Part shown: one piece after another, positions 481 to 54,484 of the stretch
How the letters are laid out: every line of letters begins with the position of its first letter
Numbering within the stretch: position 1 is the stretch's first letter
Origin: Rhodospirillales bacterium
GTDB taxonomy: Bacteria; Pseudomonadota; Alphaproteobacteria; Rhodospirillales; Casp-alpha2
Assembly: GCA_040219295.1 (NCBI GenBank)
Contig: JAVJST010000005.1
Coordinates: forward strand, 795,557-859,556
DNA: 64,000 nucleotides
Direction of reading: 5' to 3'
The notes under the pieces: generated by a model
Database searches by the model: none
What the model was told of the DNA's origin: nothing
What the model saw: the letters and a program-made list of their open reading frames with translations, nothing else
Position numbers and translations under genes: made by a program

Positions 481-960
481 ATGCCTCTTGCCAAAGCCAA
501 TCCCCTGTTCCTGCGTGACGCCGATTTGCGGGAGGCGCTGGAACTGCTTTTCTTCGGTTACAGGGATTTCACGTCGGAGGCAGACGCCATCCTCGCCAAC
601 TACGGGTTCGGCCGCGCCCATCACCGGGTGATCTATTTCGTTGGTGCCAACCCGGGCCTCTCGGTGAGCGAACTGCTTGGCACTCTTCAGGTAACCAAGC
701 AAAGTCTCTCACGGGTGCTGGGCCAGTTGGTTGATGAGCGGTTCGTCGAACAGCGGACCGATGCCGATGACCGGCGCAGGCGGTTGCTGTTTTTGACAGA
801 GAAAGGCCAGGGCCTTGAGAACGAGCTGACCGAAAGACAGTGCGCCTTGATCGCCAGGGCCTATCGGCAGGCGGGGGCTTCGTCGGTTGCCGGGTTTCGG
901 ACGGTGATGATGGGGATCATCAATGAGAAAGACCGCCAACGGTTCGACAGCAAGGATTGA
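481..960 (+). CDS. MarR-family transcriptional regulator
   Basis: 159-aa ORF with a winged-helix segment (LSVSELLGTLQVTKQSLSRVLGQLVDERFVEQRTDADDRRRRLLFLTEKG) typical of MarR. It is divergent from ilvE and directly upstream of an RR/HK pair. Confidence 0.8.
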   Translation: MPLAKANPLFLRDADLREALELLFFGYRDFTSEADAILANYGFGRAHHRVIYFVGANPGLSVSELLGTLQVTKQSLSRVLGQLVDERFVEQRTDADDRRRRLLFLTEKGQGLENELTERQCALIARAYRQAGASSVAGFRTVMMGIINEKDRQRFDSKD

Positions 961-1038
961 CGAAACGGCATGTCGCGCATCTCAATGCCATGCGTGACGT
1001 GTTAACCTCGCGGGTAGCAAGGAGAGCAACCGGCAGCC

Positions 1039-1731
1039 ATGATGTCCGCGTCGACTTCGGAACCACCGCATATTCTCGTCGTCGATGACGATGACCGCTT
1101 GCGCAGTTTGCTGCGCCAGTACCTAAGCGACAACAAGTTCATTGTATCGGTTGCGGCGGATGCCGCTGAAGCGCGGCGCTGCTTGGAGTCGATTACCTTC
1201 GACCTCATCGTGCTCGACCGCATGATGCCAGGAGAAACCGGCCTCGATCTTGCGGCCAGTCTCCGTCGCGCCAGCGAGGTGCCTATTCTCATGCTCACGG
1301 CCATGGCCGAGGCCGACGATCGGATCGACGGGCTCGAGGCGGGTGTCGACGACTATCTGACGAAGCCGTTCGAACCGCGTGAGTTGCTCTTGCGCATTCA
1401 GGGTATCCTGCGCCGTGTGCCGAAGGATGCGGGTGTCAAGGTTGTGACAATGGGCGATCATGAGTTTGACGCTGCCCGTGGCGAGTTGACCCGCGACGGA
1501 AGCCTCGTTCGCCTGACCGAGGCCGAAGCCGCTTTGTTGACGGCTTTGGCAGAGCGGGCGGGAGAAGTGCTCGAACGGGAACGGCTGATTGAACTGACCG
1601 GCGCCATCGGCACAGTCCGCGCGGTCGACGTTCAGGTCACGCGGCTGCGGCGAAAGATCGAGCGTGATCCGCGCGCTCCACGGTATCTACAGACCGTTCG
1701 CGGTCGCGGCTACGTCCTTCGTCCGGACTGA
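1039..1731 (+). CDS. OmpR/PhoB-family response regulator
   Basis: REC domain (ILVVDDDDRL...DLIVLDRMMPGETG...LTKPF) followed by a winged-helix trans_reg_C domain (VDVQVTRLRRKIE...YLQTVRGRGYVL). Confidence 0.9.
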   Translation: MMSASTSEPPHILVVDDDDRLRSLLRQYLSDNKFIVSVAADAAEARRCLESITFDLIVLDRMMPGETGLDLAASLRRASEVPILMLTAMAEADDRIDGLEAGVDDYLTKPFEPRELLLRIQGILRRVPKDAGVKVVTMGDHEFDAARGELTRDGSLVRLTEAEAALLTALAERAGEVLERERLIELTGAIGTVRAVDVQVTRLRRKIERDPRAPRYLQTVRGRGYVLRPD

Positions 1732-1741
1732 GGAGCACCGC

Positions 1742-3067
1742 GTGGCCGTCTCCTCCACAATCAAACGTTATCTTCCCCGGAGCCTGCTCGGACGGTCTCT
1801 TCTGATCATTGTGTCGCCGCTGATTCTGCTGCAGGTCGTTTCGGCGCTGATCTTCTACGAAAGCCACTGGGACAAGATCACTCGACGGCTGGCGGTCAGC
1901 GTCGCGGGAGACATCAGCGCGTTGATGATCCTCTGGCAGGAAGACCGTTCACCCGATAGACGCCGGGAGATCATCGACCTCGCTGCCGCGACGATGGGCT
2001 TGTCGCTGACGTTCAGGCCCGACGACGTGTTGAATTCTGTCGACACGCGTTCGACTGTTAGCGGCGACCTCGACACGACGTTGTACCGCGTCATCTCGTC
2101 GTACGTGAATCGGCCTATTCAGCTCGATTCGGACAGTCTGGAAGATCACGTGGTGATCGAGGTTCAACTTTCCGAAGGTGTCATGGAAGTCGTCGTGCCT
2201 CGCAAGCGGCTGTCCAGTTCAACGACCTACGTTTTCATCATCTGGATGGTGGGTTCTTCGTTGATCCTTTTTTCGGTGGCGATGATCTTCATGCGCAACC
2301 AGATCCGGCCGATCGGCAGGCTCGCGGTTGCCGCCGACAACTTCGGCAAGGGTCGGAACGTCGAGAGCTTCAAGCCTGAGGGCGCGACCGAGGTCCGCCA
2401 GGCGGCACAGGCATTCCTCGCGATGCGCGAGCGCATCCAGCGCCAGATATCGCAGCGCACGGACATGCTGGCCGGCGTGTCGCATGATCTCAGAACGCCG
2501 ATCACCCGGATCCGACTTCAACTTGCTTTGCTTGAAGGCAAGGAAGGGGTCGAGTCCCTGAAGGCGGATATCGATGACATGGAGTACATGCTCGAGGAGT
2601 ATCTTGCCTTCGCCCGTGGCGAAGGGACCGAGAGACCTGAGGAGACCAAGCTCAGCCTGCTTATCGAAGACGCCATCGAACGATGCCGGACGGAAGACGC
2701 GCACATCGATCTCCATATCGAGGAGGACATCAGTCTGGTTGTCCGTCCCAATGCGTTGAAGCGCGCCATCACCAATCTGGTGGAAAACGCTACCCGATAC
2801 GGCGATCACGTGCAGGTCCGGGCCGGGCGTCGCGGCGACCACGTCGAAATCGCCATCGACGACGACGGACCGGGCGTGCCGGCGGACAAGCGCGAGGATG
2901 TTTTCAAGCCATTCTTCCGGATCGAGAAGTCTCGAAATCCCGGTACCGGCGGCGTGGGTCTGGGGCTAGCGATCGCCCGCGACGTGGTGCGTGGCCATGG
3001 CGGCGACATTCTGCTTGATGACTCGCCGCTCGGCGGGCTGCGGGCCAGTTTCCGGCTGCCAGTATAA
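1742..3067 (+). CDS. sensor histidine kinase (EnvZ-like: 2 TM, HAMP, HisKA, HATPase_c)
   Basis: H-box MLAGVSHDLRTPITRI, N-box NLVENATRYG, G-boxes DDDGPGV and GTGGVGLGLAI. The track ORF starts at 1664 inside the RR gene. I prefer the in-frame GTG at 1742, which lies 6 nt after GAGGAG and after the RR stop. Confidence 0.85.
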   Translation: MAVSSTIKRYLPRSLLGRSLLIIVSPLILLQVVSALIFYESHWDKITRRLAVSVAGDISALMILWQEDRSPDRRREIIDLAAATMGLSLTFRPDDVLNSVDTRSTVSGDLDTTLYRVISSYVNRPIQLDSDSLEDHVVIEVQLSEGVMEVVVPRKRLSSSTTYVFIIWMVGSSLILFSVAMIFMRNQIRPIGRLAVAADNFGKGRNVESFKPEGATEVRQAAQAFLAMRERIQRQISQRTDMLAGVSHDLRTPITRIRLQLALLEGKEGVESLKADIDDMEYMLEEYLAFARGEGTERPEETKLSLLIEDAIERCRTEDAHIDLHIEEDISLVVRPNALKRAITNLVENATRYGDHVQVRAGRRGDHVEIAIDDDGPGVPADKREDVFKPFFRIEKSRNPGTGGVGLGLAIARDVVRGHGGDILLDDSPLGGLRASFRLPV

Positions 3068-3084
3068 GTGGGAAATTGGTGGCC

Positions 3085-4335
3085 ATGGAGATCGTGCAAA
3101 GCCTGACCGGACTGCTGGCATTGAGTGGTCTTGCCTGGCTGTTTGGTGAGCGACGACGAATCAATGCGTGGAAAACGGTGGCTGTCGGACTTGCTGCGCA
3201 GTTGATCGTGGCGGCGATCCTGCTCGACATCCAGTTCGCCCGCCAGGTTTTCTCGTGGCTGAACGCCGCCGTTCTGGCCCTGCAGGACGCGACGAGGGCA
3301 GGCACGTCGTTCGTCTTCGGCTACCTTGGAGGCGGTGCGCTGCCGTTTACCGAGAGTTATCCGGGCGCGGCATTCGTCCTGGCGTTTCAGGCGCTGCCGC
3401 TGATCCTCGTGACCAGCGCTTTGACCGCGCTTCTCTACCACCTGCGAATCCTGCCGCTGGTCGTCAGGGCGTTCGCGTGGGCCTTGCAGCGAACCCTCGG
3501 CGTGAGCGGGACCGTCGGCGTCAGTGCTGCTGCCAACATCTTTGTCGGCATGGTTGAGGCACCTTTGTTCGTTCGGCCGTACCTGTCAGGGCTCAGTCGC
3601 AGCGAACTGTTCATGGTGATGACATGCGGCATGGCGACGATCGCGGGCACCGTTTTCGCGCTCTACGCGACGTTTCTGGCAGGAGTCATCGACAACGCGG
3701 CGGGTCATCTCTTGACGGCCTCGCTGATCAGCGTGCCGGCAGCGATTATGGTGGCGCGGCTCATGGTGCCGGGCGAGTGCGCGGACTCCGCGATTTCCAA
3801 TGTCGATCTGCCGCCGTCGTCGGACAGATCGACGATGGACGCGATCACGCGGGGGACGATCGAAGGCGTCGGCCTGCTGCTCAACGTGACAGCGATGCTG
3901 ATCGTTCTGGTCGCGCTTGTTTCGTTGTTCGACATGGTCATCGGCCTGCTTCCAGAGGTGGCGGGGATGCCGTTGTCACTGGAGAGGATTCTCGGGTGGG
4001 TCATGGCCCCGGTCGTCTGGTTGATGGGCGTGCCGTGGGATGAGGCACCTACGGCCGGATCGCTCATGGGCACCAAGGTTGTCCTTAACGAGTTGCTGGC
4101 CTACCTGAAGATGGCCGCGCTGCCGGACGGCGCCCTTTCGCCGCGTTCCCGGCTCATCATGACTTACGCGATCTGCGGGTTTGCCAACTTCGGTAGTCTG
4201 GGGATCATGCTGGGTGGTCTGTGCGCGATGATGCCCGAGCGCCGCGAGGAGATCGTTGGCCTGGGCATGAAGTCGATCGTGTCTGGAACTCTGGCGACTT
4301 GTTTGACTGGTGCCGTGGTCGGCATTCTCGGCTGA
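3085..4335 (+). CDS. NupC/CNT-family nucleoside:cation symporter
   Basis: Polytopic membrane protein with the CNT N-terminal, central and C-terminal pattern (GTSFVFG, ANIFVGMVEAPL, MTCGMATIAG, GFANFGSLGI). The start is ATG 3085 or TTG 3076. Confidence 0.8.
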   Translation: MEIVQSLTGLLALSGLAWLFGERRRINAWKTVAVGLAAQLIVAAILLDIQFARQVFSWLNAAVLALQDATRAGTSFVFGYLGGGALPFTESYPGAAFVLAFQALPLILVTSALTALLYHLRILPLVVRAFAWALQRTLGVSGTVGVSAAANIFVGMVEAPLFVRPYLSGLSRSELFMVMTCGMATIAGTVFALYATFLAGVIDNAAGHLLTASLISVPAAIMVARLMVPGECADSAISNVDLPPSSDRSTMDAITRGTIEGVGLLLNVTAMLIVLVALVSLFDMVIGLLPEVAGMPLSLERILGWVMAPVVWLMGVPWDEAPTAGSLMGTKVVLNELLAYLKMAALPDGALSPRSRLIMTYAICGFANFGSLGIMLGGLCAMMPERREEIVGLGMKSIVSGTLATCLTGAVVGILG

Positions 4336-4456
4336 GACGCCTTCACCGACATGTGATCAGGCTTTAGTTCTCTTCGCTACGGCGACTCTGGCATGAATTC
4401 CACTAGCGCGTCTTATGGACACGCGGCTTTTGGGATCATGCAAGGGAGAACGAAGA

Positions 4457-4750
4457 ATGAAACGCCAAGTCAAAACCGCAGCCGTTGTAGCCGGCGCCAT
4501 CGCTCTATCGACGGCCAGTCTTGTGACCGGCACCGCACACGCCGCCGAACAGGAGAAATGCTACGGCGTCGCGCTTGCCGGTGAGAACGACTGTGCGGCG
4601 GGTGCCGGTACAACCTGTGCCGGAACGTCGACAGTCGATTACCAGGGGAATGCGTGGACACTGGTGCCGAAGGGCACATGCGAATCCGTCGAGCTTCCGG
4701 GCGACCGCATGGGCAGTCTCGAGCCGCTGGACCGTGATATCCCGAGCTAA
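4457..4750 (+). CDS. bufA: DUF2282-type exported 4-Cys peptide (bufferin-like RiPP precursor)
   Basis: 97 aa from ATG 4457, with GGGAGA 7 nt upstream. Sec signal [29 protein letters not shown]|AE. The core has four Cys in [45 protein letters not shown], the DUF2282 signature. The track ORF (4415) starts further upstream. Confidence 0.85.
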
Positions 4751-4789
4751 GTCCCTTCGCCAACGATCGCGCTGATCGGAGGACCCGAG

Positions 4790-5656
4790 ATGCTTGCTTC
4801 AGGCGATTTCTCGCGCAGGCCGGGCGTCGGCCTCAAGCCGCAGCACGTCGAGGAAATCCTGGCTGACGGAAAGGGGGTTGGCTGGTTCGAGGTGCATGCC
4901 GAGAACTATATGGGTGCCGGTGGACCGCCGCATGCCTGGCTCGAAAAAGTCAGGTCCTGCTACCCGCTGTCGGTGCATGGCGTCGGGTTGTCAATTGGCG
5001 GTTCCGGTGAGATCGACCGTGCGCATCTTGCCCGTCTAAAAACGGTTGTCGATCGGTACGAGCCGGGACTGGTTTCGGAACACCTGGCATGGTCGACTCA
5101 TCAGGGCCGCTACTTCAATGATCTCTTGGCAGTGCCATACACGAGAGAGACGTTGCAGTTGGTCTGTGAGCATGTCGACGAGGTACAAACGGCTCTGGGA
5201 CGCCGCATCCTGCTGGAAAACCCTGCGACCTATGTTTGGCATGAGGAAAGCGTGTTCGACGAACCGGCGTTCATTGCCGAAGTTCTTCAGCGCGCCGGAT
5301 GCGGTCTGTTGCTTGACGTGAACAATGTTCACGTCGCCTGCACCAATCACGGATGGGACTCGGCAGAGTACATCCGTCAACTCCCGACCGCTGTCGGCGA
5401 AGTACATCTTGCGGGCCATGCGGAAGATGTGGGCGATGATGATCGCGTCGTGCTGATCGATGCACACGACAGACGGGTGTCGGCGGAGGTGTGGGCTTTG
5501 TTCGAACTTGCCATCGAGCATACGGGCCGCGTACCGGTGCTGATCGAATGGGACAACGACATCCCCGAGTGGCCGGTTCTGGCCGGGGAGGCTGACCTCG
5601 CTGCTGCAGTCATGGACCGGAGCAATACTGACCGCGGAGCGCGTCATGTGGCATGA
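4790..5656 (+). CDS. bufB: DUF692 / MNIO-family (MbnB-like multinuclear non-heme iron) enzyme
   Basis: 288 aa with TIM-barrel DUF692 motifs: GVGLKPQH, FEVHAENYMG, SVHGVGLSIG, SEHLAW, LLENPATY, LLLDVNNVHV, EVHLAGH, LIEWDNDIP. Confidence 0.9.
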   Translation: MLASGDFSRRPGVGLKPQHVEEILADGKGVGWFEVHAENYMGAGGPPHAWLEKVRSCYPLSVHGVGLSIGGSGEIDRAHLARLKTVVDRYEPGLVSEHLAWSTHQGRYFNDLLAVPYTRETLQLVCEHVDEVQTALGRRILLENPATYVWHEESVFDEPAFIAEVLQRAGCGLLLDVNNVHVACTNHGWDSAEYIRQLPTAVGEVHLAGHAEDVGDDDRVVLIDAHDRRVSAEVWALFELAIEHTGRVPVLIEWDNDIPEWPVLAGEADLAAAVMDRSNTDRGARHVA

Positions 5657-6407
5657 TCGTCAGCAAGGATGGAGTGACGGCCTGCTGAATCCACAGGTCG
5701 TTCCGGTGGGTATCGCGAGCGACCGGTTCGCAATACACCGAAACAATTTCGCATTGAGCTTGATAGAGTTGCTTCGCGGAACTTTTCCCGTCGTCAGCGC
5801 TTTGCTCGGCGAGGATTGTTTCAACACAATGGCTCGGCAATTTATCCGCCGCGATCCCCCGCGTTCCCCGGTTCTGATCGAATACGGTCGTACATTCGGC
5901 CGATTCCTCGAGGCGCACGAGCTTTCTGACGAAGTACCTTATATCGCAGATGTGGCTCGTCTGGAGTGGGCGCGTCACGAAGCCTTTCATGCCGCCGACA
6001 CGGAGCCCGCCGGGATTGCTGCTCTGGCAGGCATCCCGGCAGACGATCTCGATGAACTGCACCTTCGGGTGCATCCGTCGGTGCGTTTGGTTTACTCTCG
6101 CTGGCCGGCAGTGTCGATCTGGCATGCACACCAAGAAAAGGGGACGCCTGAAGCGCTCGCCAACCTGCCGGCAATCGCGGAAACCGCCCTGGTGGTGCGG
6201 CCGGCGCTGGACGTTGAGGTCAGGATTATCGCCGACCAGGCGGCGGCTTTCCTGGCAGCCGTGATGAAGGGCAACCCGTTGGGTAGGGCGATCGGGGCCG
6301 CCATGGCCGAAGGTCCGGGCGACATCGCCGCCTGCCTGGACGGAGCATTCTCATCAGGTGCTATTGCCGGCATCGATTTTCAGTCGCACGAACCGGGAGG
6401 ACGATAG
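5646..6407 (+). CDS. bufC: DUF2063-domain partner protein of the MNIO enzyme
   Basis: 253 aa with FAIHRNNFALSLIELLRGTFPVVSALLGEDCFNTMARQFIRRDPPRSPVLIEYG...ADVARLEWA, typical of DUF2063. The start overlaps the bufB stop by 11 nt. Confidence 0.85.
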   Translation: MWHDRQQGWSDGLLNPQVVPVGIASDRFAIHRNNFALSLIELLRGTFPVVSALLGEDCFNTMARQFIRRDPPRSPVLIEYGRTFGRFLEAHELSDEVPYIADVARLEWARHEAFHAADTEPAGIAALAGIPADDLDELHLRVHPSVRLVYSRWPAVSIWHAHQEKGTPEALANLPAIAETALVVRPALDVEVRIIADQAAAFLAAVMKGNPLGRAIGAAMAEGPGDIAACLDGAFSSGAIAGIDFQSHEPGGR

Positions 6408-6985
6408 TGATCATCCGACTTGTCATCCGGACTCATGATCTGGTCTTCAACACCTTGACCCGGTTCGCTGGCGACTGGTTCCTCGGTTTGGCTGCCCGTT
6501 TGGTTTTGTCCAGCGTGCTCTTGGTGTTCTTCCTCAGATCCGCCGCAACCAAGGTCGGTGACGGTTTTCCCGGTATCCTGGTGCCCGAAATCGGCGCCTA
6601 CGCACAGATTGTGCCGTCGGTCGCGGAGTCCGTATCGTATGACGTCAGCCAGATCGCCTTCATCCCCTGGGGACTGATAGTACATCTCGGCACTTACGCT
6701 GAGGTCCTCTTGCCGTTGATGATACTGTTCGGGTTGTTCACACGAGCCGCCAGCATGGCGATGATTGCATTCATCGCTGTCATGACCTTCGTTGATATCC
6801 AGTTTCATGGTGTCAGCGCCGAGGCCGTCGGCGCTTTCTTCGACCGAACCCACGATTCACCGATCACCGACCAGCGGCTGCTTTGGGCTTTTCCTCTCGC
6901 CTATCTCATGATCCGCGGCGGCGGGCGTCTCTCACTGGACGCCGTGCTACGTCAGTACATGCGTCCGCCAAGCGGTACATCCTGA
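6407..6985 (+). CDS. DoxX-family integral membrane protein (4th gene of the RiPP operon)
   Basis: 192-aa multi-TM protein with a DoxX-like pattern. Its GTG start shares 1 nt with the TAG stop of the DUF2063 gene (taGtg). Confidence 0.75.
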
Positions 6986-7287
6986 TCGGGGCGCAGCAGG
7001 ACGACTTCGCCGTCCTCGTCGGGGACGCCGAGGACCAGACATTCGCTCATGAACTTGCCGATCTGCTTGGGTGGAAAGTTGACCACACCAACGACCCGCC
7101 GCCCGGGAAGTGTCTCCGGGTCGTAGTGTCTCGTGATCTGAGCAGACGTCTTGCGCTCACCAATCTCCGGACCGAAGTCGACCCACATCTTGATCGCCGG
7201 TTTGCGGGCTTCGGGGTACGGCTCGGCGCGCACGATCCGGCCGACGCGGATATCGACCTTCAGGAAGTCCTCGAAAGAAAGATCCAT
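6952..7287 (-). CDS. tRNA-binding domain protein (CsaA/YgjH-like)
   Basis: [52 protein letters not shown]...[20 protein letters not shown] matches the CsaA/EMAP-type OB fold. I prefer the ATG at 7287 over the track start at 7311. Confidence 0.8.
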
Positions 7288-7360
7288 GGTGATGCCCCCT
7301 TGTCGTCTCACAGGGGGACACTAGTGCCGACGAGCGCGCGAGAACAAGGCCGTGTAGGCA

Positions 7361-45499: not shown

Positions 45500-46528
45500 T
45501 TGGCAACTGTACCCGATCCTGCCGCTGGCGCGTCGGCGAGTTCCGAAACCTCGGCCGAGGCGGTCAAGCGAATTGAAGGGCTGAGCGAACAGCTCGGCAG
45601 CGTGCGTAGCGCTGTAAGCCGCGTCATCATTGGTCTCGACGAGGTCGTGGACGAGACGTTGATCACGCTGCTCGCGGGCGGCCATGTTTTGCTCATTGGG
45701 GTGCCCGGTTTGGGAAAGACGAAACTGGTTGAAACCCTCAGCGTGGTGTTTGGTCTCGACGAACGGCGTATCCAATGCACGCCCGATCTGATGCCGGCAG
45801 ACATCCTTGGTTCAGAAGTGCTCGACGATACGGATGGCAAGGGCCGGTCATTTCGTTTCCTGCCGGGCCCCGTGTTTTCGCAGTTGCTAATGGCGGACGA
45901 AATCAACCGGGCCAGCCCGCGTACCCAGTCTGCACTTCTGCAGGCCATGCAAGAGCGGCGCGTGTCAGTCGCCGGCCAATATCACGACCTGCCGAGGCCG
46001 TTTCACGTGCTGGCAACCCAAAATCCTCTCGAGCAGGAGGGCACCTATCCGCTTCCCGAGGCCCAGCTCGACCGTTTCCTGATGCAGGTCAACGTCAGCT
46101 ATCCGGACATGGCATCGGAGCGCCAGATTCTTTTGGACACGACGGGCGCCCACGAAGTCGAGCCGAAGGCGGCTATGACGGCGGCCCAGTTGCTTGAGGC
46201 GCAGAGGCTAATCCGCCATGTGCCCGTGGCGGATGGCGTGGTCGATTCAATCTTGCGATTGGTCCGGAGCGGTCGTCCGGAATCGTCGGAGATCGAAGAA
46301 GTCCGCGAGCACGTCGCCTGGGGTCCGGGTCCTCGCGCCAGTCAGGCCCTAATGCTGGCCGTTCGAGCGCGTGCTGTCCTCGACGGCCGTCTCGCCCCGA
46401 GCAGCGAAGACGTCGCCGCCCTTGCCGCACCCGTACTGCGACACAGGATGGCGCTCAATTTCGCGGCGCGTGCGGAGGGTGTGACGCTGAGGGCGATCAT
46501 CTCACGCATGCTGGTCGAGGCGGCTTGA
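45500..46528 (+). CDS. MoxR-family AAA+ ATPase
   Basis: Walker A HVLLIGVPGLGKT, Walker B LLMADEINRASPRTQSALLQAMQE, and ATQNPLEQEGTYPLPEAQLDRF. The track start is TTG. Confidence 0.9.
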   Translation: MATVPDPAAGASASSETSAEAVKRIEGLSEQLGSVRSAVSRVIIGLDEVVDETLITLLAGGHVLLIGVPGLGKTKLVETLSVVFGLDERRIQCTPDLMPADILGSEVLDDTDGKGRSFRFLPGPVFSQLLMADEINRASPRTQSALLQAMQERRVSVAGQYHDLPRPFHVLATQNPLEQEGTYPLPEAQLDRFLMQVNVSYPDMASERQILLDTTGAHEVEPKAAMTAAQLLEAQRLIRHVPVADGVVDSILRLVRSGRPESSEIEEVREHVAWGPGPRASQALMLAVRARAVLDGRLAPSSEDVAALAAPVLRHRMALNFAARAEGVTLRAIISRMLVEAA

Positions 46529-47460
46529 CGTCCGCCCGGCATCATAAGACTTCCCACGATCCGGAACTGGAATCTTCCGGCAACCTGTACGGTCGGGCCG
46601 AGGCGATCGGCGCGGACCTGCCGGCACTGCTTGTCGAGGCGCACCGCATCGCCCACACGGTCGCGCCCGGGGTTCACGGCCGGCGCCGCCGGGGTTCCGG
46701 CGAAACATTCTGGCAGTTCAGGCGTTATCAGTTCGGTGATTCCGTCCAGCGCATCGATTGGCGTCAGACCGCCAAGTCGGATCGCGTCTATATCCGTGAG
46801 ACAGAATGGGAGGTTGCCCAGTCCGTCTGGATATGGAGAGACGCTTCGCCTTCGATGGAGTTCACGTCCGACCCGAATCTGATCAGCAAGGTTGACCGTG
46901 CGAGCCTGCTGGCAATGGCGCTGGGTGTTCTGCTCGTTCGTGGCGGCGAGCGGATCGCACTCGCCGAAACCGGCCGACCGCCGTCAAGCGGTTCTGGTGC
47001 TTTGATGGCCATGGCGGACGAATTGTCGCACTGGCGCGATGCCCCGCCCTCGGCGAGCGCCGCCTTGTTTGCTCGCGCCCGCCAGCTTCCCAGACATGCC
47101 CGCGTGGTTCTGATCGGCGATTTCCTGGAACCGGTCGAGGAAACGCACCGGCTTCTCAAGGCGCTGGCGGCGCAACGAATCCGGGGACATTTGCTGCGGA
47201 TCGTCGACCCCGCAGAGGAAACGTTGCCGTACGACGGGCGCGTGTTGTTCGATGACCCCGAGGATGGTCACTCGACGCTGGTCGATTGGGTGGCCTCAAG
47301 CAGACCGGCGTACCTGTCGGCCTGGCGCCGGCATGGCGAGAGCCTGCGTGACGCCGCGCGATCGTCCGGCTGGAGCATTGATACGCACCACACCGACCGG
47401 CCGCCGGAAGAGGCGCTTCTTGCGTTATACTTGGCCGTCGCCGGGATAACCTTGGAGTAG
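46525..47460 (+). CDS. DUF58-domain protein (MoxR partner)
   Basis: FWQFRRYQFGDSVQRIDWRQTAKSDRVYIRETEWE is the DUF58 core. TTGA overlap with moxR. Confidence 0.85.
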   Translation: MTSARHHKTSHDPELESSGNLYGRAEAIGADLPALLVEAHRIAHTVAPGVHGRRRRGSGETFWQFRRYQFGDSVQRIDWRQTAKSDRVYIRETEWEVAQSVWIWRDASPSMEFTSDPNLISKVDRASLLAMALGVLLVRGGERIALAETGRPPSSGSGALMAMADELSHWRDAPPSASAALFARARQLPRHARVVLIGDFLEPVEETHRLLKALAAQRIRGHLLRIVDPAEETLPYDGRVLFDDPEDGHSTLVDWVASSRPAYLSAWRRHGESLRDAARSSGWSIDTHHTDRPPEEALLALYLAVAGITLE

Positions 47461-47465
47461 GCGTC

Positions 47466-50225
47466 ATGTGGAGCCTCGGGCCGATTGGGTTTTTCGCTCC
47501 CTGGGCTTTGCTCGGGCTGGCGGCACTGCCGCTCGTCTGGTGGCTGGTCCGGTTCCTGCCGCCGTCACCGCGCCACGTGCGGTTCCCCGCGTCCCGGTTC
47601 CTGTTCAATGCCGATCGCGATCAACCGCAACAACGGTCATCGATCTGGTGGATCCTGCTGATGCGGCTTGTTGCCGTGGCAGCGGTGATTGTGGCGGCGG
47701 CGGAACCGGTCGCTCAACCAGAAGCCGCGCTCGAGTCGTCAGGCCCGGTCGTTATTGTGATCGACGATGGGTGGTCTGCCGCACCCGGCTGGTCGACGCG
47801 GCGCGACATCGCGCGGAGCCTGATTGCGCGTGCGGAGCGCGAAGACCGGCCTGTTATGCTGTTGTCGACGACGCCGGGCGAGGCTGGACGGTTTGATCCT
47901 CCGGCGTTCACCAGCATCGCCGATGCCCGGCGGAAAGTTGACGCGATGCGACCGAAACCCTGGCCCAGCGAGCCGGCCAAGGCCCTGGCGCCGCTATTCG
48001 ATTCCGATTCTTCGGTGTCGAAAGCAGGACGGATATTTTGGCTGAGCGACGGAATTGACCCGGACGGTGCAAACGGGCATGCAGGAGCGCTTGTCGAACG
48101 ACTAATGCGGATCGGCCCGGTTACCTACTATCGGCCAGGCAAAGGTAACGGGGCCATATTGTTACGCGCCGAAGAAGGCTCTAGCCTGGCGCTGTCTGCG
48201 CGATTGACCCGCTCGTCGGAGGCGGAGGCGTTCGTACACTCGGTGATCGCATACGACGAGAACGGGATTGCCTTGGGGCGGGCGCCCGCCGAATTCGCGC
48301 CCGGGCAGGTCAGTACCATCGCAACTTTTGACCTGCCACTGGAGATCCGAAACCGCGTTACCTGGCTCGCTGTCGAAGGTCATGTCGCCGTCGGCGCTGT
48401 TGCCTTGCTGGACGACCGGTGGCGCCGCCGGACTGTCGGACTGGTCGGTGCGGGCGGGACTGGCGACGACCAGCCGTTGCTGAGCGGGCAGCATTACGTC
48501 GCCAAGGCCCTGGCATTGGGCCACGAAGTCGTCGACGGCAGCCTCGACGAATTGATCGACTCCGGCGCGCCAGTGATTGCTGTGGTCGATCCGGGAACCG
48601 TGACGCCCGACATTGCGGACAGGCTCCGGGGGTGGATTGAGGATGGCGGTGTTCTGCTCGTGTTTGCCGGACCGCGTTTTGCCGATGCGGCGGTGGCGAC
48701 CGGCGCCGGTGATGCTGCCGGATGGTCCTCGCTCTTGCCGGTGAAACTACGCCAGGGCGATCGGGCGATTGGCGGCGCGATGTCCTGGCTTCAACCCGCG
48801 ACGGTCGCCGGCTTCGGGTCGGATAGCCCGTTTCTCGGGTTGCAGGTGCCCGGCGACATACGGGTCAACCGCCAAGTGCTCGCCGAGCCCGAGATCGGTA
48901 TCGAACAGCGCACGTGGGCAAGACTTTCGGACGGAACGCCATTGGTCACCGGGCGGGCGATCGGCAAGGGCTGGACGTCGCTGGTACACGTCACGGCCAA
49001 TGCGGAATGGTCGAACCTACCGTTCTCCGGCCTGTTTGTCGAAATGATGAGCAGGATAACCGCGTTATCGCACAAGACATCGGCCGGTTCCCGGGAGCGG
49101 GTCCTGTCGCCGATCTCGATACTCGACGGTTTCGGATCGTTGCAGCCTGCCCCGGGCTCGGTAGCGTCGATCACGTCCGCGGAGTTGCCGCATACAGCGC
49201 CTTCACCGCGCCATCCGCCTGGCTATTACGGGGATCAACAGGAACGCCGGGCACTGAACGTTTCGGACAACGTTGCCGACCCGGTTCCCGTCATCGGCCT
49301 GCCGCCGGCAGTCGAGCAACGATCTTACATTGCGGACCGCGAACAGCCTATCGCGCCGTGGCTGCTCGGCCTGGTATTTGTCCTCATGGTCGGCGACCTC
49401 TTGGCGTCGTTGTGGCTCCGCGGTTACTTGGGTTGGCGGGCGGCCCCCTCCGGCGCGAGAGTGTCTGCGGGCGTGCTGCTCGCGGCAGTTCTGCTTCCGT
49501 CGCCGGTTCTTGCGGATGGGCATGAACCGCTGTCGGACTTGATCGAGGCTGCGTCGCATACCCGCATCGCATACATCGAGACCGGTGACAGGGAGATTGA
49601 TCAGGTAACCTACATTGGCTTGTCGAGCCTCGGTCAGGTGCTGTGGCAGCGAACCGCGGTCGAACTGGCGGAGCCCGTGGCGATCGATCCAGCGGTGGAT
49701 GAACTGGCCTTCTATCCGTTAATCTACTGGCCGGTGGCGGCGACCTCGGAGGTGCCGACCAATTCTACGGCGCGGCGCATAAACGCCTACCTTGAAACCG
49801 GTGGCATGATCCTGTTCGACGCCAAGTCGACGGACAGCGAGGTTGCCGATCTGGTAACCCGAATTGCAGACATTCTTGATGTGCCCCGGCTTGCGCCCGT
49901 CCCGAACGATCATGTCCTTTCGCGATCATTCTACCTACTTGGCGAGTTCCCGGGACGCTGGGCCGGTCGTCCGGTCTGGATCGCGCCCGCGGCCAACCGC
50001 GTCAACGATGGCGTCGCGCCGATCATCGCCGGCAGTCACGATTGGGCGGCCGCTTGGGCGACCGATGAGTTTCAGGAGCCGTTGTTTGCCGTTGTGCCGG
50101 GGGGAGAACGTCAACGCGAACTGGCGTTCCGGTTTGGCGTCAACCTTATGATGTATGCGCTGACCGGCAACTACAAAGAGGATCAGGTGCATATTCCCTC
50201 GATCATGCAAAGGCTCGGTCAATGA
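47466..50225 (+). CDS. large membrane protein: BatA-type N-terminal double-TM domain plus C-terminal DUF4159
   Basis: N-terminus FFAPWALLGLAALPLVWWLVRFLPPSP...RFP (aerotolerance-regulator N-terminal type). C-terminus LETGGMILFD...SFYLL...FGVNLMMYALTGNYKEDQVH (DUF4159-like). Confidence 0.75.
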   Translation: MWSLGPIGFFAPWALLGLAALPLVWWLVRFLPPSPRHVRFPASRFLFNADRDQPQQRSSIWWILLMRLVAVAAVIVAAAEPVAQPEAALESSGPVVIVIDDGWSAAPGWSTRRDIARSLIARAEREDRPVMLLSTTPGEAGRFDPPAFTSIADARRKVDAMRPKPWPSEPAKALAPLFDSDSSVSKAGRIFWLSDGIDPDGANGHAGALVERLMRIGPVTYYRPGKGNGAILLRAEEGSSLALSARLTRSSEAEAFVHSVIAYDENGIALGRAPAEFAPGQVSTIATFDLPLEIRNRVTWLAVEGHVAVGAVALLDDRWRRRTVGLVGAGGTGDDQPLLSGQHYVAKALALGHEVVDGSLDELIDSGAPVIAVVDPGTVTPDIADRLRGWIEDGGVLLVFAGPRFADAAVATGAGDAAGWSSLLPVKLRQGDRAIGGAMSWLQPATVAGFGSDSPFLGLQVPGDIRVNRQVLAEPEIGIEQRTWARLSDGTPLVTGRAIGKGWTSLVHVTANAEWSNLPFSGLFVEMMSRITALSHKTSAGSRERVLSPISILDGFGSLQPAPGSVASITSAELPHTAPSPRHPPGYYGDQQERRALNVSDNVADPVPVIGLPPAVEQRSYIADREQPIAPWLLGLVFVLMVGDLLASLWLRGYLGWRAAPSGARVSAGVLLAAVLLPSPVLADGHEPLSDLIEAASHTRIAYIETGDREIDQVTYIGLSSLGQVLWQRTAVELAEPVAIDPAVDELAFYPLIYWPVAATSEVPTNSTARRINAYLETGGMILFDAKSTDSEVADLVTRIADILDVPRLAPVPNDHVLSRSFYLLGEFPGRWAGRPVWIAPAANRVNDGVAPIIAGSHDWAAAWATDEFQEPLFAVVPGGERQRELAFRFGVNLMMYALTGNYKEDQVHIPSIMQRLGQ

Positions 50226-52354
50226 GTGGCGGCGTCTGGCAAATCACCTTTGCGCCGGTCGTGCCCTGGATGGTGTTGATCGCGCTCGGCGTCGTCGCCC
50301 TCGGCATCGTCGGGTACAGTCTGTTCCGTGATGCTGGCGGGGTATCTGCCCGCACCATCGGTTTTGCGGTTCTCCTACTGGCGCTGGCGAACCCGCGACA
50401 CGTCGAGGAGAGGCGGGAAGCCGAAACCGACATCGCGCTGCTGGTCGTTGACCGGACCGCCAGTCAGGCCGTGGGTGAGCGACAGGCACAGACCGATGCC
50501 GCGGCCCAGTTGATCCGGGACCGGTTGGCCGAGGATCCGGGCATCGAACTGCGTGAGATCGAGGTTTCTCGATCAAGCGCGGGATTTGGTCGGGACGCTG
50601 GCGGGACAGCGCTATTGGGGCCGTTGGCTCGCGCGGCTGCCGGTATCCCGGCATCCCGATATGCGGGAGCTGTCGTCATTACGGATGGGCAGGTGCACGA
50701 CGTCCCGGCGGCAGCGGAAAGCACGGTTGGCACGACCCGTCGGGAATCCTACGGCGAGACATTACCGGACGGGCCGTTGCACGTGCTGATTGCTGGCGAG
50801 AAAGACAGTTTCGACCGCCGGATCCTGATCGAGACCGTCCCGGCGTATGCGATCGTCGGGAAACCGTTCGAGATCACCTACCGCGTCGTCGACAGCGGCG
50901 TGACCGAAGCCGCGGCCGGGGATACGCCGCTGCACGCCGAACTCCGGGTCGATGGGGTCTTGCAGGGCCGCGAAACCATCCTGAATGGCGCGAGCGGATC
51001 GTTCGAGGTGTCGGTCGATCACGCCGGCGTCTCCGTGATCGAGGTCACGACACCGGCCGCTGAGGGTGAACTGTCGACGATCAACAATTCGGCCGTGGCG
51101 ACCGTCAACGGCGTCCGAGACCGCCTCCGGGTACTGCTGGTATCGGGCCAGCCGCACGCAGGCGAGCGGACCTGGCGTAACCTTCTGAAGTCGGACCCGG
51201 CAGTGGACCTTATTCACTTCACGATTCTACGCCCGCCGGACAAAAGCGACTTCACGCCGATCCGTGAGCTGGCGCTCATAACCTTCCCGACGTTCGAATT
51301 GTTCGAGCTGAAACTCAAGGAATTCGATCTCGTCGTATTCGATCGCTACGTCGTGCGCTTCGTACTGTCGCCACTCTATTTCCGCAACATCCGCGATTTC
51401 GTGACCGAAGGGGGGGCGGTGATGCTGGCGGTCGGTCCCGAGTACGCGGGGCACCGGAGTCTGTACGATACTCCGCTCGGCGAGATCGCGCCTGCCAGAC
51501 CGGTGGGCGGCGTCATCGAACAACCCTTCAGGCCGAGCCTGACAGAGGCCGGCAATCGGCACCCGGTGACCGCCGGGCTTGGCGGCCGCGACGCGAACTG
51601 GGGACGGTGGTTGCGCCAGATACCGGTCGTCGAGGAATCGGGCGACGTTCTCATGCGCGGGGCCGAGGACCTTCCGCTGCTCGTTCTGTCCAGGGTCGGA
51701 GAAGGCCGCATCGGTTTTCTGGCCAGTGACCAGGTGTGGCTGTGGGCCCGGGATTTTGATGGCGGTGGCCCGCATGCGGAGTTGATCCGGCGCACAGCGC
51801 ACTGGTTGATGCGCGAGCCCGCGCTCGAAGAGGAGAGTCTCTCCGCGGAGCTCGATGGAGATCAGATTCGCGTGACCCGCCGTACGTTGTCGGAGGCCGC
51901 CGACTCGGTGGTCATGCGACGTCCGGATGGCGTTGAGGAGATCCTTACGCTCGAGCAGAGTGACGAGGGGCGGTTCAGCGCCTCGACGGCCACCGACGGC
52001 CCCGGCGTCTACCGCTTCGACGATGGCGAGTACCAGGCCCATCTGGCGGTTGGCGACGTAGACCCGGTTGAGTACAGGGATCTGCGTGCAACCGAGGAGA
52101 TTCTGACACCGCTCAGTGTGTCATCCGGTGGCGCCAGTATGTGGCTGAACGACGGCGTTCCCGATTTGCGTCGGCCAAAGCAGGGGCGTGATATGGCCGG
52201 TCGCGACTGGATCGGACTACGTACGAACGAGTCCTACATCGTCACGGGCCTGTCCGAACGGCCGTTGTTGCCGGGGTGGCTGGTTGCATTACTCGTGGTC
52301 GGCACGTTGATGGCTGCATGGTGGTGGGAAAGCCGGACCGGGAAACACCCGTAA
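50222..52354 (+). CDS. large membrane protein of the MoxR module (N- and C-terminal TM anchors, unknown family)
   Basis: 710 aa. ATGA overlap with the preceding gene. TM helices lie at both ends (VVPWMVLIALGVVALGIV, LLPGWLVALLVVGTLMAAWWW). Confidence 0.65.
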   Translation: MSGGVWQITFAPVVPWMVLIALGVVALGIVGYSLFRDAGGVSARTIGFAVLLLALANPRHVEERREAETDIALLVVDRTASQAVGERQAQTDAAAQLIRDRLAEDPGIELREIEVSRSSAGFGRDAGGTALLGPLARAAAGIPASRYAGAVVITDGQVHDVPAAAESTVGTTRRESYGETLPDGPLHVLIAGEKDSFDRRILIETVPAYAIVGKPFEITYRVVDSGVTEAAAGDTPLHAELRVDGVLQGRETILNGASGSFEVSVDHAGVSVIEVTTPAAEGELSTINNSAVATVNGVRDRLRVLLVSGQPHAGERTWRNLLKSDPAVDLIHFTILRPPDKSDFTPIRELALITFPTFELFELKLKEFDLVVFDRYVVRFVLSPLYFRNIRDFVTEGGAVMLAVGPEYAGHRSLYDTPLGEIAPARPVGGVIEQPFRPSLTEAGNRHPVTAGLGGRDANWGRWLRQIPVVEESGDVLMRGAEDLPLLVLSRVGEGRIGFLASDQVWLWARDFDGGGPHAELIRRTAHWLMREPALEEESLSAELDGDQIRVTRRTLSEAADSVVMRRPDGVEEILTLEQSDEGRFSASTATDGPGVYRFDDGEYQAHLAVGDVDPVEYRDLRATEEILTPLSVSSGGASMWLNDGVPDLRRPKQGRDMAGRDWIGLRTNESYIVTGLSERPLLPGWLVALLVVGTLMAAWWWESRTGKHP

Positions 52355-52361
52355 TCGGCGA

Positions 52362-53270
52362 TCACATGTCGACTCGCCACGGTGAGCTTTCTCCGAACCG
52401 ATCTGCGAGGAAATCGACAAACAAGCGGATTTTCGCGGACAAGTGACGATTGTGCGGATACACCGCGTAGATCGCGGCGCCCGTGCTTCCATATTCATCG
52501 AGTACGGACTCGAGCTGCCCGTTACGCAGTGCACCGGCAACGATAAAGAGGGGCGTGTTGAGTACGCCGTGACCGGCGATTGCAGCTGCACGCAGCGCTT
52601 CGCCATTGTTGGCGGACAGATTGCCGTTGACGTGAACCGCGTGATGTTGGTCGCCGTTGTCGAAGGTCCACTCATTCTGCGTCGACAGGTACGAGTACTG
52701 CAGGCAGTTGTGGTGAATAAGGTCATCCGGTGATTGCGGGCGGCCGTGTCGTCTCCAGTACGAGGGACTCGCGCAGATAACCCGGTCGAATGGTGCCAGC
52801 TTGCGGGCGATCATCGTCGAGTCGGGTAGACGGGTGATGCGCACGGCCAGGTCGTAGCCCTCCTCGACTACATCGACGAGACGGTCGCTAAGATCGAGAT
52901 CGATCGACAGTTCAGGATGATCCGACATGAATGCGGCAACTGCTTCGGCCAGATACATCACGCCGAACGACATCGGAGCGTTCACCCGCAGCAGCCCGCG
53001 CGGTTCTGCCTGCAAATCGCGGACCGCGCGTTCGGCGTCGCCGAGATCGGCGATGATCCGGCTACAGCGATCATAGAATGCCCGGCCGACCTCGGTCGTG
53101 CTGATCTTTCGTGTGGTTCTGTTTAGCAACCGCGCGCCGAGTCGGTCCTCCAGTCTGGCAACCTGTTTGCTTATTGCCGACTTGCCGACGCCCAGATGGC
53201 GCGCCGCCTGAGTGAAGCCGCCGCGCTCCACCACGGCGGTAAATGCCTCGATTTCATCCAAAGAACGCAT
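52362..53270 (-). CDS. LysR-family transcriptional regulator
   Basis: HTH FTAVVERGGFTQAARHLGVGKSAISKQVARLEDRLG followed by a LysR substrate-binding domain. Confidence 0.9.
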   Translation of the reverse strand: MRSLDEIEAFTAVVERGGFTQAARHLGVGKSAISKQVARLEDRLGARLLNRTTRKISTTEVGRAFYDRCSRIIADLGDAERAVRDLQAEPRGLLRVNAPMSFGVMYLAEAVAAFMSDHPELSIDLDLSDRLVDVVEEGYDLAVRITRLPDSTMIARKLAPFDRVICASPSYWRRHGRPQSPDDLIHHNCLQYSYLSTQNEWTFDNGDQHHAVHVNGNLSANNGEALRAAAIAGHGVLNTPLFIVAGALRNGQLESVLDEYGSTGAAIYAVYPHNRHLSAKIRLFVDFLADRFGESSPWRVDM

Positions 53271-53387: not shown

Positions 53388-54017
53388 ATGACCCGCATAC
53401 TTGTTGTCAACGCGAGCCCCAACACGGAAACCAGCAAGAGCCGATTGCTGACGGCCCGCTATGTTGAGAAAGTCACGTCCGGCGAGTCGACCGCCGACGT
53501 CGTCTATCGCGACGTCGGCGTGACGCCGCCGCCGCACCTCGACAGTGCCACCATCGGCGCTTTCTTTACGCCGGCCGAAAACCGAACCGACGAACAAAAG
53601 GCGCTAATCGCCTTGTCAGATCAACTCGTTGGCGAGGTCAGAGATGCCGATATCATCGTCATCGGTTCGCCGATGCAGAACTTCGGCATGAGCTCCGGGC
53701 TCAAGACCTGGTTTGATCATATCGCCAGGGCCGGTGTCACCTTCCGCTATACCGAAAACGGGCCCGAGGGTCTGCTCGGCGGCCGCAAAGTCATTATCGT
53801 CACGGCGACCGGCGGCGATTATTCGGAGGGCTCTCAGGCGGCACATCTGAACCACCAGCTCCCGCACCTGAAGACCCTTTTCGGTTTTCTCGGCATCGAC
53901 GACGTTTCGGTCGCCGAAGCATCGAAGACGGCCGTGGACGACGAGGGTGTCGCTGCTGCGGCCAGTCGCATCGATTTGATTGCCGCAGAGGATATCGCAA
54001 CACGGATGGCGGCCTGA
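53388..54017 (+). CDS. azoR: FMN-dependent NADH-azoreductase/quinone reductase
   Basis: ILVVNASP, SPMQNFGMSSGLKTWFDHIARAGVTFRYTENGPEGLL and HLKTLFGFLGI motifs. Confidence 0.85.
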   Translation: MTRILVVNASPNTETSKSRLLTARYVEKVTSGESTADVVYRDVGVTPPPHLDSATIGAFFTPAENRTDEQKALIALSDQLVGEVRDADIIVIGSPMQNFGMSSGLKTWFDHIARAGVTFRYTENGPEGLLGGRKVIIVTATGGDYSEGSQAAHLNHQLPHLKTLFGFLGIDDVSVAEASKTAVDDEGVAAAASRIDLIAAEDIATRMAA

Positions 54018-54058: not shown

Positions 54059-54484
54059 ATGACTAGTGAAGATCGCATTGGATACGCAGGATTGCTGCTT
54101 CGCCTGACGCTCGGCGTCATGTTCATCGCTCACGGACTTCTCAAGGTGTTCGTGTTTACGCTGCCCGGCACGGTCGCCTTCTTCGAGAACCTCGGACTCC
54201 CGGGATTTCTCGCCTATTTCACGGTCATCGCTGAGATTGGCGGCGGAGCACTGCTGATCCTCGGCATCTACGTTCCGCTCGTATCGGTCGGGCTGCTGCC
54301 GATCCTGCTGGGCGCCACCTGGGCCCATGCCGGTAATGGCTGGGTTTTCAGTGCCGAAGGCGGTGGTTGGGAATACCCGCTCTTCCTAACGCTGTCGACC
54401 GCCGTTCTCGCACTCGTCGGTGCCGGGAAGTATGCCGTCACTCTTCCGGTTCCGGGCCGCTTGGCGAACGCCTTGAACCCGTGA
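54059..54484 (+). CDS. DoxX-family membrane protein
   Basis: LLLRLTLGVMFIAHGLLKVF...EIGGGALLILGIY is the classic DoxX pattern. Confidence 0.8.
   Translation: MTSEDRIGYAGLLLRLTLGVMFIAHGLLKVFVFTLPGTVAFFENLGLPGFLAYFTVIAEIGGGALLILGIYVPLVSVGLLPILLGATWAHAGNGWVFSAEGGGWEYPLFLTLSTAVLALVGAGKYAVTLPVPGRLANALNP

Follow-up and report, generated by a model that had tools for sequence, protein, structure and literature searches.

A cluster in a Rhodospirillales genome that very probably belongs to the canonical Buf1-type bufferin operons, and an upstream element shared by its close relatives

What do four tightly packed genes, lying among housekeeping genes in a member of the Rhodospirillales, produce, and how are they controlled? 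The genes occur in a stretch of 64,000 nucleotides (nt) of contig JAVJST010000005.1 (assembly GCA_040219295.1), referred to here as the window. An earlier description made from the letters alone (the sequence-only reading) assigned their products to the DUF2282, DUF692, DUF2063 and DoxX families. We conclude that the locus is very probably an intact, canonical Buf1-type bufferin cluster, bufA1B1C1D1 (below, bufA to bufD), in a Rhodospirillales metagenome-assembled genome (MAG). Clusters of this type consist of a DUF2282 precursor, a multinuclear non-heme iron oxidase (MNIO), a DUF2063 partner and DoxX (Leprevost et al., 2024, PMC11626156; PMC12452194), and are also treated by Antoine et al. 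(2025). The Buf1 cluster is a known kind with thousands of family members, and a well-studied four-gene operon.

All four open reading frames (ORFs) scored above the Pfam gathering scores of the families named: PF10048 on BufA with 89.7 bits (cut-off 22.4), PF05114 on BufB with 334.7 bits (cut-off 25), PF09836 on BufC with 81.6 bits (cut-off 27.2) and PF07681 on BufD with 29.9 bits (cut-off 23.6). BufB also passes the NCBI equivalog model NF050167 MNIO_BufB (368 bits, cut-off 310), and in the same equivalog scan it fell below the cut-offs of the HvfB, MbnB, ApyH and ChrH models. The order A-B-C(-D) is retained in 78-80 of the 80 genome loci related to the window cluster, the set on which all counts of related loci are based. 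The DUF2282, DUF692, DUF2063 and DoxX assignments are thus supported by hidden Markov model (HMM), structural and comparative tests, and the locus fits the published Buf1 architecture (PMC11626156, PMC12452194). Every feature of Buf1 membership that can be examined in silico was found: the DUF2282 match, four cysteines, a Sec signal (heuristic), BufB, DUF2063 and DoxX, the last being common in such clusters but not required. The C-terminal domain of the DUF2063 partner in Buf1 clusters is expected to be RRE-like. The exact sequences of the four proteins are present in GenBank (MEQ8665663-66, Rhodospirillales MAG) under generic labels (DUF2282, DUF692, 'DNA-binding domain-containing protein' and 'DoxX family protein'), which can be replaced by bufA1B1C1D1.

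The precursor bears the precomputed label PF10048:BufA1, and proteins of Roseovarius and Rhodovulum named 'BufA1 family periplasmic bufferin-type metallophore' share 85-91% identity with its core. More than 7,998 BufA homologues were scored. In an alignment of 47 homologues, Cys35, Cys46, Cys54 and Cys75 are invariant, and the signal peptide is variable except for its A-x-A end. By heuristic, the signal has an n-region charge of +3, hydropathy that peaks at 2.24 over the 11 residues 7-17, and AHA-A as its site at residues 27-30. The predicted mature core is acidic, with 68 residues, an average mass of 6978.6 Da and cysteines at core positions 6, 17, 25 and 46 (spacing 11/8/21). The cysteine spacing and the E-x-C-Y and W-x-x-V strands match Caulobacter Buf1 at a constant offset of six residues (here Cys6, Cys17, Cys25 and Trp38 in core numbering; published Caulobacter core numbering includes Cys12, Lys24, Ser30, Ala32 and Trp44). 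A solved-structure sequence search with BufA gave no match, and its model was dropped from the fold search due to low confidence.

Both the DUF692 structure 3BWW (3.9e-33) and MbnB (about 1e-10 to 1e-11) match BufB. Nine of its residues (H63, H98, E143, D176, N179, H206, D224, H226 and E253) are at least 97% invariant among 72 homologues and are candidate iron ligands. Seven of the nine, H98 through H226, lie within the HMMER alignment of BufB with MbnB, where they fall on MbnB positions 90, 133, 163, 166, 192, 208 and 210, which we take to be iron ligands of that enzyme. N179, D224 and H226 are the counterparts of HvfB site-3 residues that have been published as essential. The AlphaFold2 model of BufC has a predicted local distance difference test score (pLDDT) of 94.5. 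A Foldseek search with this model returned whole-length matches to TglI (8hci_A; E=5.4e-7, TM 0.63), the partner of the MNIO TglH, and to NGO1945 (3dee; E=6.4e-4), a DUF2063 structure. No match was obtained with BufC in the solved-structure sequence search.

The layout of the genes (Table 1) agrees in all respects with the sequence-only reading. The ORF list and the raw sequence both contain the 97-residue peptide with a Sec signal and four cysteines that it described. Also as described, 39 nt separate bufA from bufB (4750 to 4790), the bufB stop overlaps the bufC start by 11 nt (5646 vs 5656), the bufC TAG (6405-6407) shares G6407 with the GTG start of bufD, and the cluster is flanked by nupC upstream and a csaA-like gene downstream. 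The start coordinate of 4336 given earlier does lie before the cluster, but it is the first base past the nupC stop and not the start of a gene. The four genes are a single transcribed unit, with translation coupled via the 39-nt gap and the 11-nt and 1-nt overlaps.

Table 1. Positions of the bufABCD genes, their flanks and candidate control sites, in window coordinates.
Feature	Position	Strand	Basis or remark
bufABCD cluster	4457-6985	+	four tightly packed genes
bufA, 97-aa BufA1/DUF2282 precursor	ATG 4457 to TAA 4750	+	PF10048 E=1.2e-25
bufA signal peptide, residues 1-29	4457-4543	+	predicted cleavage between AHA and AE
bufA Cys codons	4559, 4592, 4616, 4679	+	contexts EKCYG, NDCAAG, TTCAG, GTCES
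Shine-Dalgarno GGGAG of bufA	4444-4448	+	sequence reading; 9 nt upstream of ATG
bufB, 288-aa MNIO/DUF692 enzyme	4790-5656	+	PF05114 E=4.5e-100
bufC, 253-aa DUF2063 partner with C-terminal alpha/beta domain	5646-6407	+	PF09836 E=4.9e-23, residues 10-88
bufD, 192-aa divergent DoxX-family membrane protein, GTG start, without Cys	6407-6985	+	PF07681 29.9 bits
nupC-family transporter, upstream flank	3076-4335	+	
csaA-like tRNA-binding gene, downstream flank	6952-7311	-	
Palindrome TCACCGACATGTGA (TCAC-N6-GTGA), candidate operator just upstream of putative -35 box	4343-4356	+	relatives' alignment
TTTAGTTC box, window counterpart of GTTAATTC, candidate -35 element	4363-4370	+	inference
TGGCAT box, candidate -10 element	4389-4394	+	inference; 17 nt (18 nt in window) past -35 candidate

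The 11-nt overlap of bufB and bufC is exact in six close relatives (L083, L084, L085, L166, L168 and the ERR4592245 contig), and in L169 it is 4 nt. A GGAG/AGGA-type motif before bufA is retained in the upstream alignment of relatives. The 3' ends of bufD and the convergent csaA-like gene overlap by 34 nt (6952-6985), which leaves a terminator no space; no such overlap occurs in L083.

The proposal that the locus makes a periplasmic metal-binding RiPP (a peptide produced by ribosomes and modified after translation) is supported, as a reading, by family membership and by homology to Caulobacter Buf1. In Buf1, CysII and CysIII are converted to 5-thiooxazoles, and CysI and CysIV form a disulfide (PMC11626156, PMC12452194). 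The statement that the cysteines become 5-thiooxazoles therefore applies to the two central residues, but not to the outer pair. Later work assigned 5-thiooxazoles to oxazolin and fontiphorin as well (PMC13097082). We predict that the iron enzyme BufB, held on the precursor by BufC, would use O2 in the cytoplasm to convert Cys46 and Cys54 (core Cys17 and Cys25) to 5-thiooxazoles. The precursor would exit via Sec, signal peptidase would cut after Ala29 to give the 68-residue product, and a disulfide between Cys35 and Cys75 would form in the periplasm. By analogy, the folded product may bind one copper ion by two thiooxazole sulfurs and two nitrogens and so buffer excess copper. The predicted mass of the modified product is that of the core minus 10 Da. 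BufD may be an accessory membrane protein, probably unneeded for modification. The locus would add one further alphaproteobacterial lineage that probably buffers periplasmic copper by means of a RiPP.

That the role of the DoxX protein is unassigned, as the sequence-only reading stated, holds, but the question is family-wide rather than specific to this locus, because in Caulobacter neither modification nor copper protection requires DoxX (PMC11626156), and no function is known for HvfX (PMC11252979). A BufD-type protein follows bufC in 74 of the 80 related loci. Hydrophobic stretches at about residues 25-50 and 90-133 (19-residue hydropathy scan), plus a weaker one near 158-169, suggest four membrane segments. 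Residues conserved at 90% or more are R31, S45, K49, E99, P103, G109, R113, W160, G171, G173 and D178. The window encodes a second, canonical DoxX protein of 141 residues (54059-54484; PF07681, 71 bits), its gene preceded by one for a flavodoxin-like NAD(P)H quinone reductase (53388-54017) and by a divergent LysR gene (52362-53270, minus strand). BLASTP found no similarity between this protein and BufD; thus, the genome has two very different DoxX-type proteins.

The control of the operon is the second part of the question. No copper sensor, extracytoplasmic function (ECF) sigma factor or other metal gene had been noticed beside the cluster, and indeed none was found among the genes examined. 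Copper genes were lacking among the approximately 45 window ORFs scanned (a few ORFs have no Pfam match), and no SigF or NrsF homologues were identified in the 64-kb window using tblastn and custom HMMs. A marginal 12.6-bit sigF/nrsF hit proved to be a LuxR-type response regulator. This is not peculiar to the locus, as a linked ECF sigma factor is likewise lacking in 62 of the 80 related loci. The remaining 18 have one, and an adjacent ORF of NrsF length was identified beside 10 of these; the two pairs examined with Pfam are Sigma70_r2/r4 and NrsF. Most of the 18 sigma-linked loci have the Caulobacter SigF motif GTAACC-N16-CGAA (PMC3511200), or a close variant, ahead of bufA. Upstream of the window bufA it is absent at up to two mismatches, and the lone hit lies inside the ORF. 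The locus is not in the SigF/NrsF-regulated Buf1 subgroup.

Close relatives of differing genomic context have in common an upstream element composed of TCAC-N6-GTGA, a TTAATTC-like box, 17 nt and TGGCAT. The palindrome of the window recurs as an identical 14-mer in L166, at equal distance from the bufA ATG and with unrelated DNA upstream, and related palindromes (TCAC-N6-GTGA or TTGA) occur in L082-L085 and L168. In L083, L084 and L166 the box reads GTTAATTC and is placed at -90 to -92 relative to the ATG; it reads TTTAATTC in L082 and GGTAATTC in L167. TGGCAT is offset from the ATG by -68 in the window, -67 in L166, -63 in L085 and -50 in L169; L168 has TACTAT in this alignment column. A regulon search found no significant enrichment of the palindrome in the window (2 matches vs 0.86 expected), and the 18-mer box occurs only once. 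Metagenome contigs searched for closer relatives added no footprinting power because the best BufB match was 61% identical.

The shared element, together with the lack of a SigF promoter, sigF and nrsF in the window, suggests a non-SigF promoter or operator belonging to the cassette itself. We consider it most likely that transcription of bufABCD begins at a non-SigF promoter carried along with the cassette. More tentatively, and with considerable doubt, the Buf1 cassette of this Rhodospirillales clade may carry a conserved non-SigF control region that moves between contexts, representing a second regulatory class in which the factor is possibly not metal-specific. If this is the case, the conserved region could be used to find the regulator of the second class of bufferins. 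Most Buf1 operons lack a linked sigma/anti-sigma pair, and for the control of such operons the upstream element provides a concrete and cheap target.

Several points weigh against the interpretation given so far. Modification, export, copper binding and expression are attributed to the locus by homology. The predicted signal peptide is based on heuristic sequence features, and the AlphaFold2 model of BufA is poor (pLDDT 53), with strands at 32-36 and 66-71 that coincide with the published beta-sheet. BufD exceeds the DoxX cut-off by only a small margin and falls short on the HvfX model (22 vs 80 bits). As for metal specificity, the related gig operons respond to Au, Cd and Cr besides Cu. As for the promoter, a sigma-70 consensus scan called none in 4336-4456, the proposed -35 and -10 boxes match sigma-70 weakly and are based on nine sequences, and no terminator is predicted between nupC and bufA.

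The alternative that fares best retains the peptide and its chemistry as proposed and changes the role, from inducible copper defence to constitutive periplasmic copper buffering or trafficking, or to protection from another metal or from oxidative or sulfur stress. We regard this as unlikely. It would fit the finding that the examined genes of the window include no metal sensor, ECF sigma factor or copper gene, as well as the lack of a SigF-type promoter, but a missing linked regulator weighs little because most related loci (the 62 above) are without one. The placement of the operon amid housekeeping genes, with synteny in at least three relatives, also points in this direction, as do the responses of published gig/buf operons to Au, Cd and Cr and the view of published authors that doxX indicates other stresses. 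However, many BufA1 proteins share 85-91% identity with the core peptide, and characterised Buf1 is copper-selective, with an affinity that is femtomolar or tighter.

Somewhat less likely again is an operon without a promoter of its own, transcribed by read-through from the upstream unit of MarR, response regulator, histidine kinase and nupC, and hence under two-component control. Read-through could occur because the nupC-bufA gap (121 nt, both genes on one strand) has no predicted terminator or terminator-like site, and the order from the response regulator and kinase through nupC to bufABCD is the same in L083, L084 and the ERR4592245 contig. The leader also contains a 9-nt inverted repeat, 89% complementary, in which the TTAGTTCTC box (4364-4372) pairs with the Shine-Dalgarno region of bufA (4446-4454). 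The upstream arm, which would be transcribed only when RNA runs through from nupC, could then hide the ribosome-binding site. Against this, the element also occurs in L166, L085 and L168, which have other upstream genes and neither nupC nor a two-component system nearby, and it begins directly after the nupC stop, resembling the left edge of a cassette. The MarR gene beside bufA in L168 is unrelated to that of the window, and MarR was rejected as a regulator of bufA. A riboswitch or other known RNA in the leader was also rejected, given that there was no Rfam match at the gathering threshold or at E<=1 and that the z-score of the fold of the 151-nt leader is only -2.5.

It is very improbable that the legacy labels are right, i.e., that DUF2282 is an integral membrane protein, DUF2063 a DNA-binding regulator and no RiPP pathway exists. 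That view survives in the description lines of Pfam and in the label 'DNA-binding domain-containing protein' in GenBank. Against it, BufA is hydrophobic only in its N-terminal signal peptide, which ends in an AXA site, the model of BufC resembles TglI, an MNIO partner, and experiments on homologues show RiPP maturation (PMC11626156, PMC13097082).

The window consists mostly of housekeeping genes. Upstream of the cluster, a compact same-strand block encodes MarR, an OmpR-type response regulator, an EnvZ-like kinase and NupC (481-4335), an order retained in relatives. The kinase probably starts near 1742, as in the L081 gene call, and not at the listed GTG 1664. Downstream are the csaA-like gene, phasin, proC and ybjN. 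This synteny is retained in L083, L084 and the ERR4592245 contig; in other close relatives the cassette follows hemF, thrS, a MarR gene or an unidentified gene. No signal of horizontal transfer was found, and the GC content of the operon (58-62%) matches that of its flanks.

Between the window and L083/L084, the flanking NupC, kinase, CsaA and phasin proteins are 74-89% identical. Within the cassette, identities are 72-75% for BufA, 67-69% for BufD, 56-61% for BufB and 43-53% for BufC. The low BufB and BufC values amid conserved flanks could reflect either much faster evolution of the enzyme pair or replacement of the cassette in place. In 21 of the 80 related loci, mostly in Kiloniellaceae and Pelagibius (e.g., L021 8930-9514), bufA is closely preceded by a same-strand gene for a secreted protein with a YHS domain (PF04945), a type of domain often associated with copper; the window has no such gene. 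The window also includes a Bat-like (aerotolerance-type) operon (45500-52354) encoding a MoxR-type AAA ATPase, DUF58 and BatA/DUF4159 proteins, and a 710-residue protein without a Pfam match.

Among known systems, methanobactin MbnBC shares with the window an MNIO with an equal set of iron ligands, a partner protein, cysteine oxidation and a copper-binding product. The short, leader-dependent peptide on which MbnB forms oxazolone/thioamide pairs is secreted and serves as a chalkophore in copper uptake. On the MbnB model TIGR04159, BufB reaches only 71.8 bits (cut-off 325), and neither MbnA nor MbnC was found. The hvfABCX genes of Haemophilus influenzae (oxazolin) and the fontiphorin genes of Fontimonas ('captophorin' class, PMC13097082) resemble the window locus in encoding an MNIO, a DUF2063-type partner and DoxX, along with a Sec-exported cysteine precursor that acquires 5-thiooxazole copper ligands. 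Captophorin precursors have repeated EGKCG motifs rather than DUF2282, whereas the window precursor has no such repeats. For this reason, and because scores fall below the Hvf cut-offs (BufB 213 bits vs HvfB 360; BufC 66 vs HvfC 142; BufD 22 vs HvfX 80), the locus is placed outside the Hvf subfamily.

The gig (gold-induced genes) operons of Cupriavidus metallidurans and Legionella pneumophila, now classed as Buf1, have the same DUF2282, DUF692, DUF2063 and DoxX cassette. They are metal-induced. Even in the closest related loci found, BufB has only about 55-62% identity to that of the window. The buf1 operon of Caulobacter vibrioides (CCNA_03363-03366, PMC11626156) differs in the adjoining sigF-nrsF and the GTAACC-N16-CGAA promoter, both absent from the window, and in the length of the DoxX protein (150 residues annotated for CC3257 vs 192 for BufD). 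It is like the window locus in having the four families in one order, a Sec signal, a 68-residue core, and the same cysteine spacing with the E-x-C-Y first strand and the W-x-x-V second strand in register.

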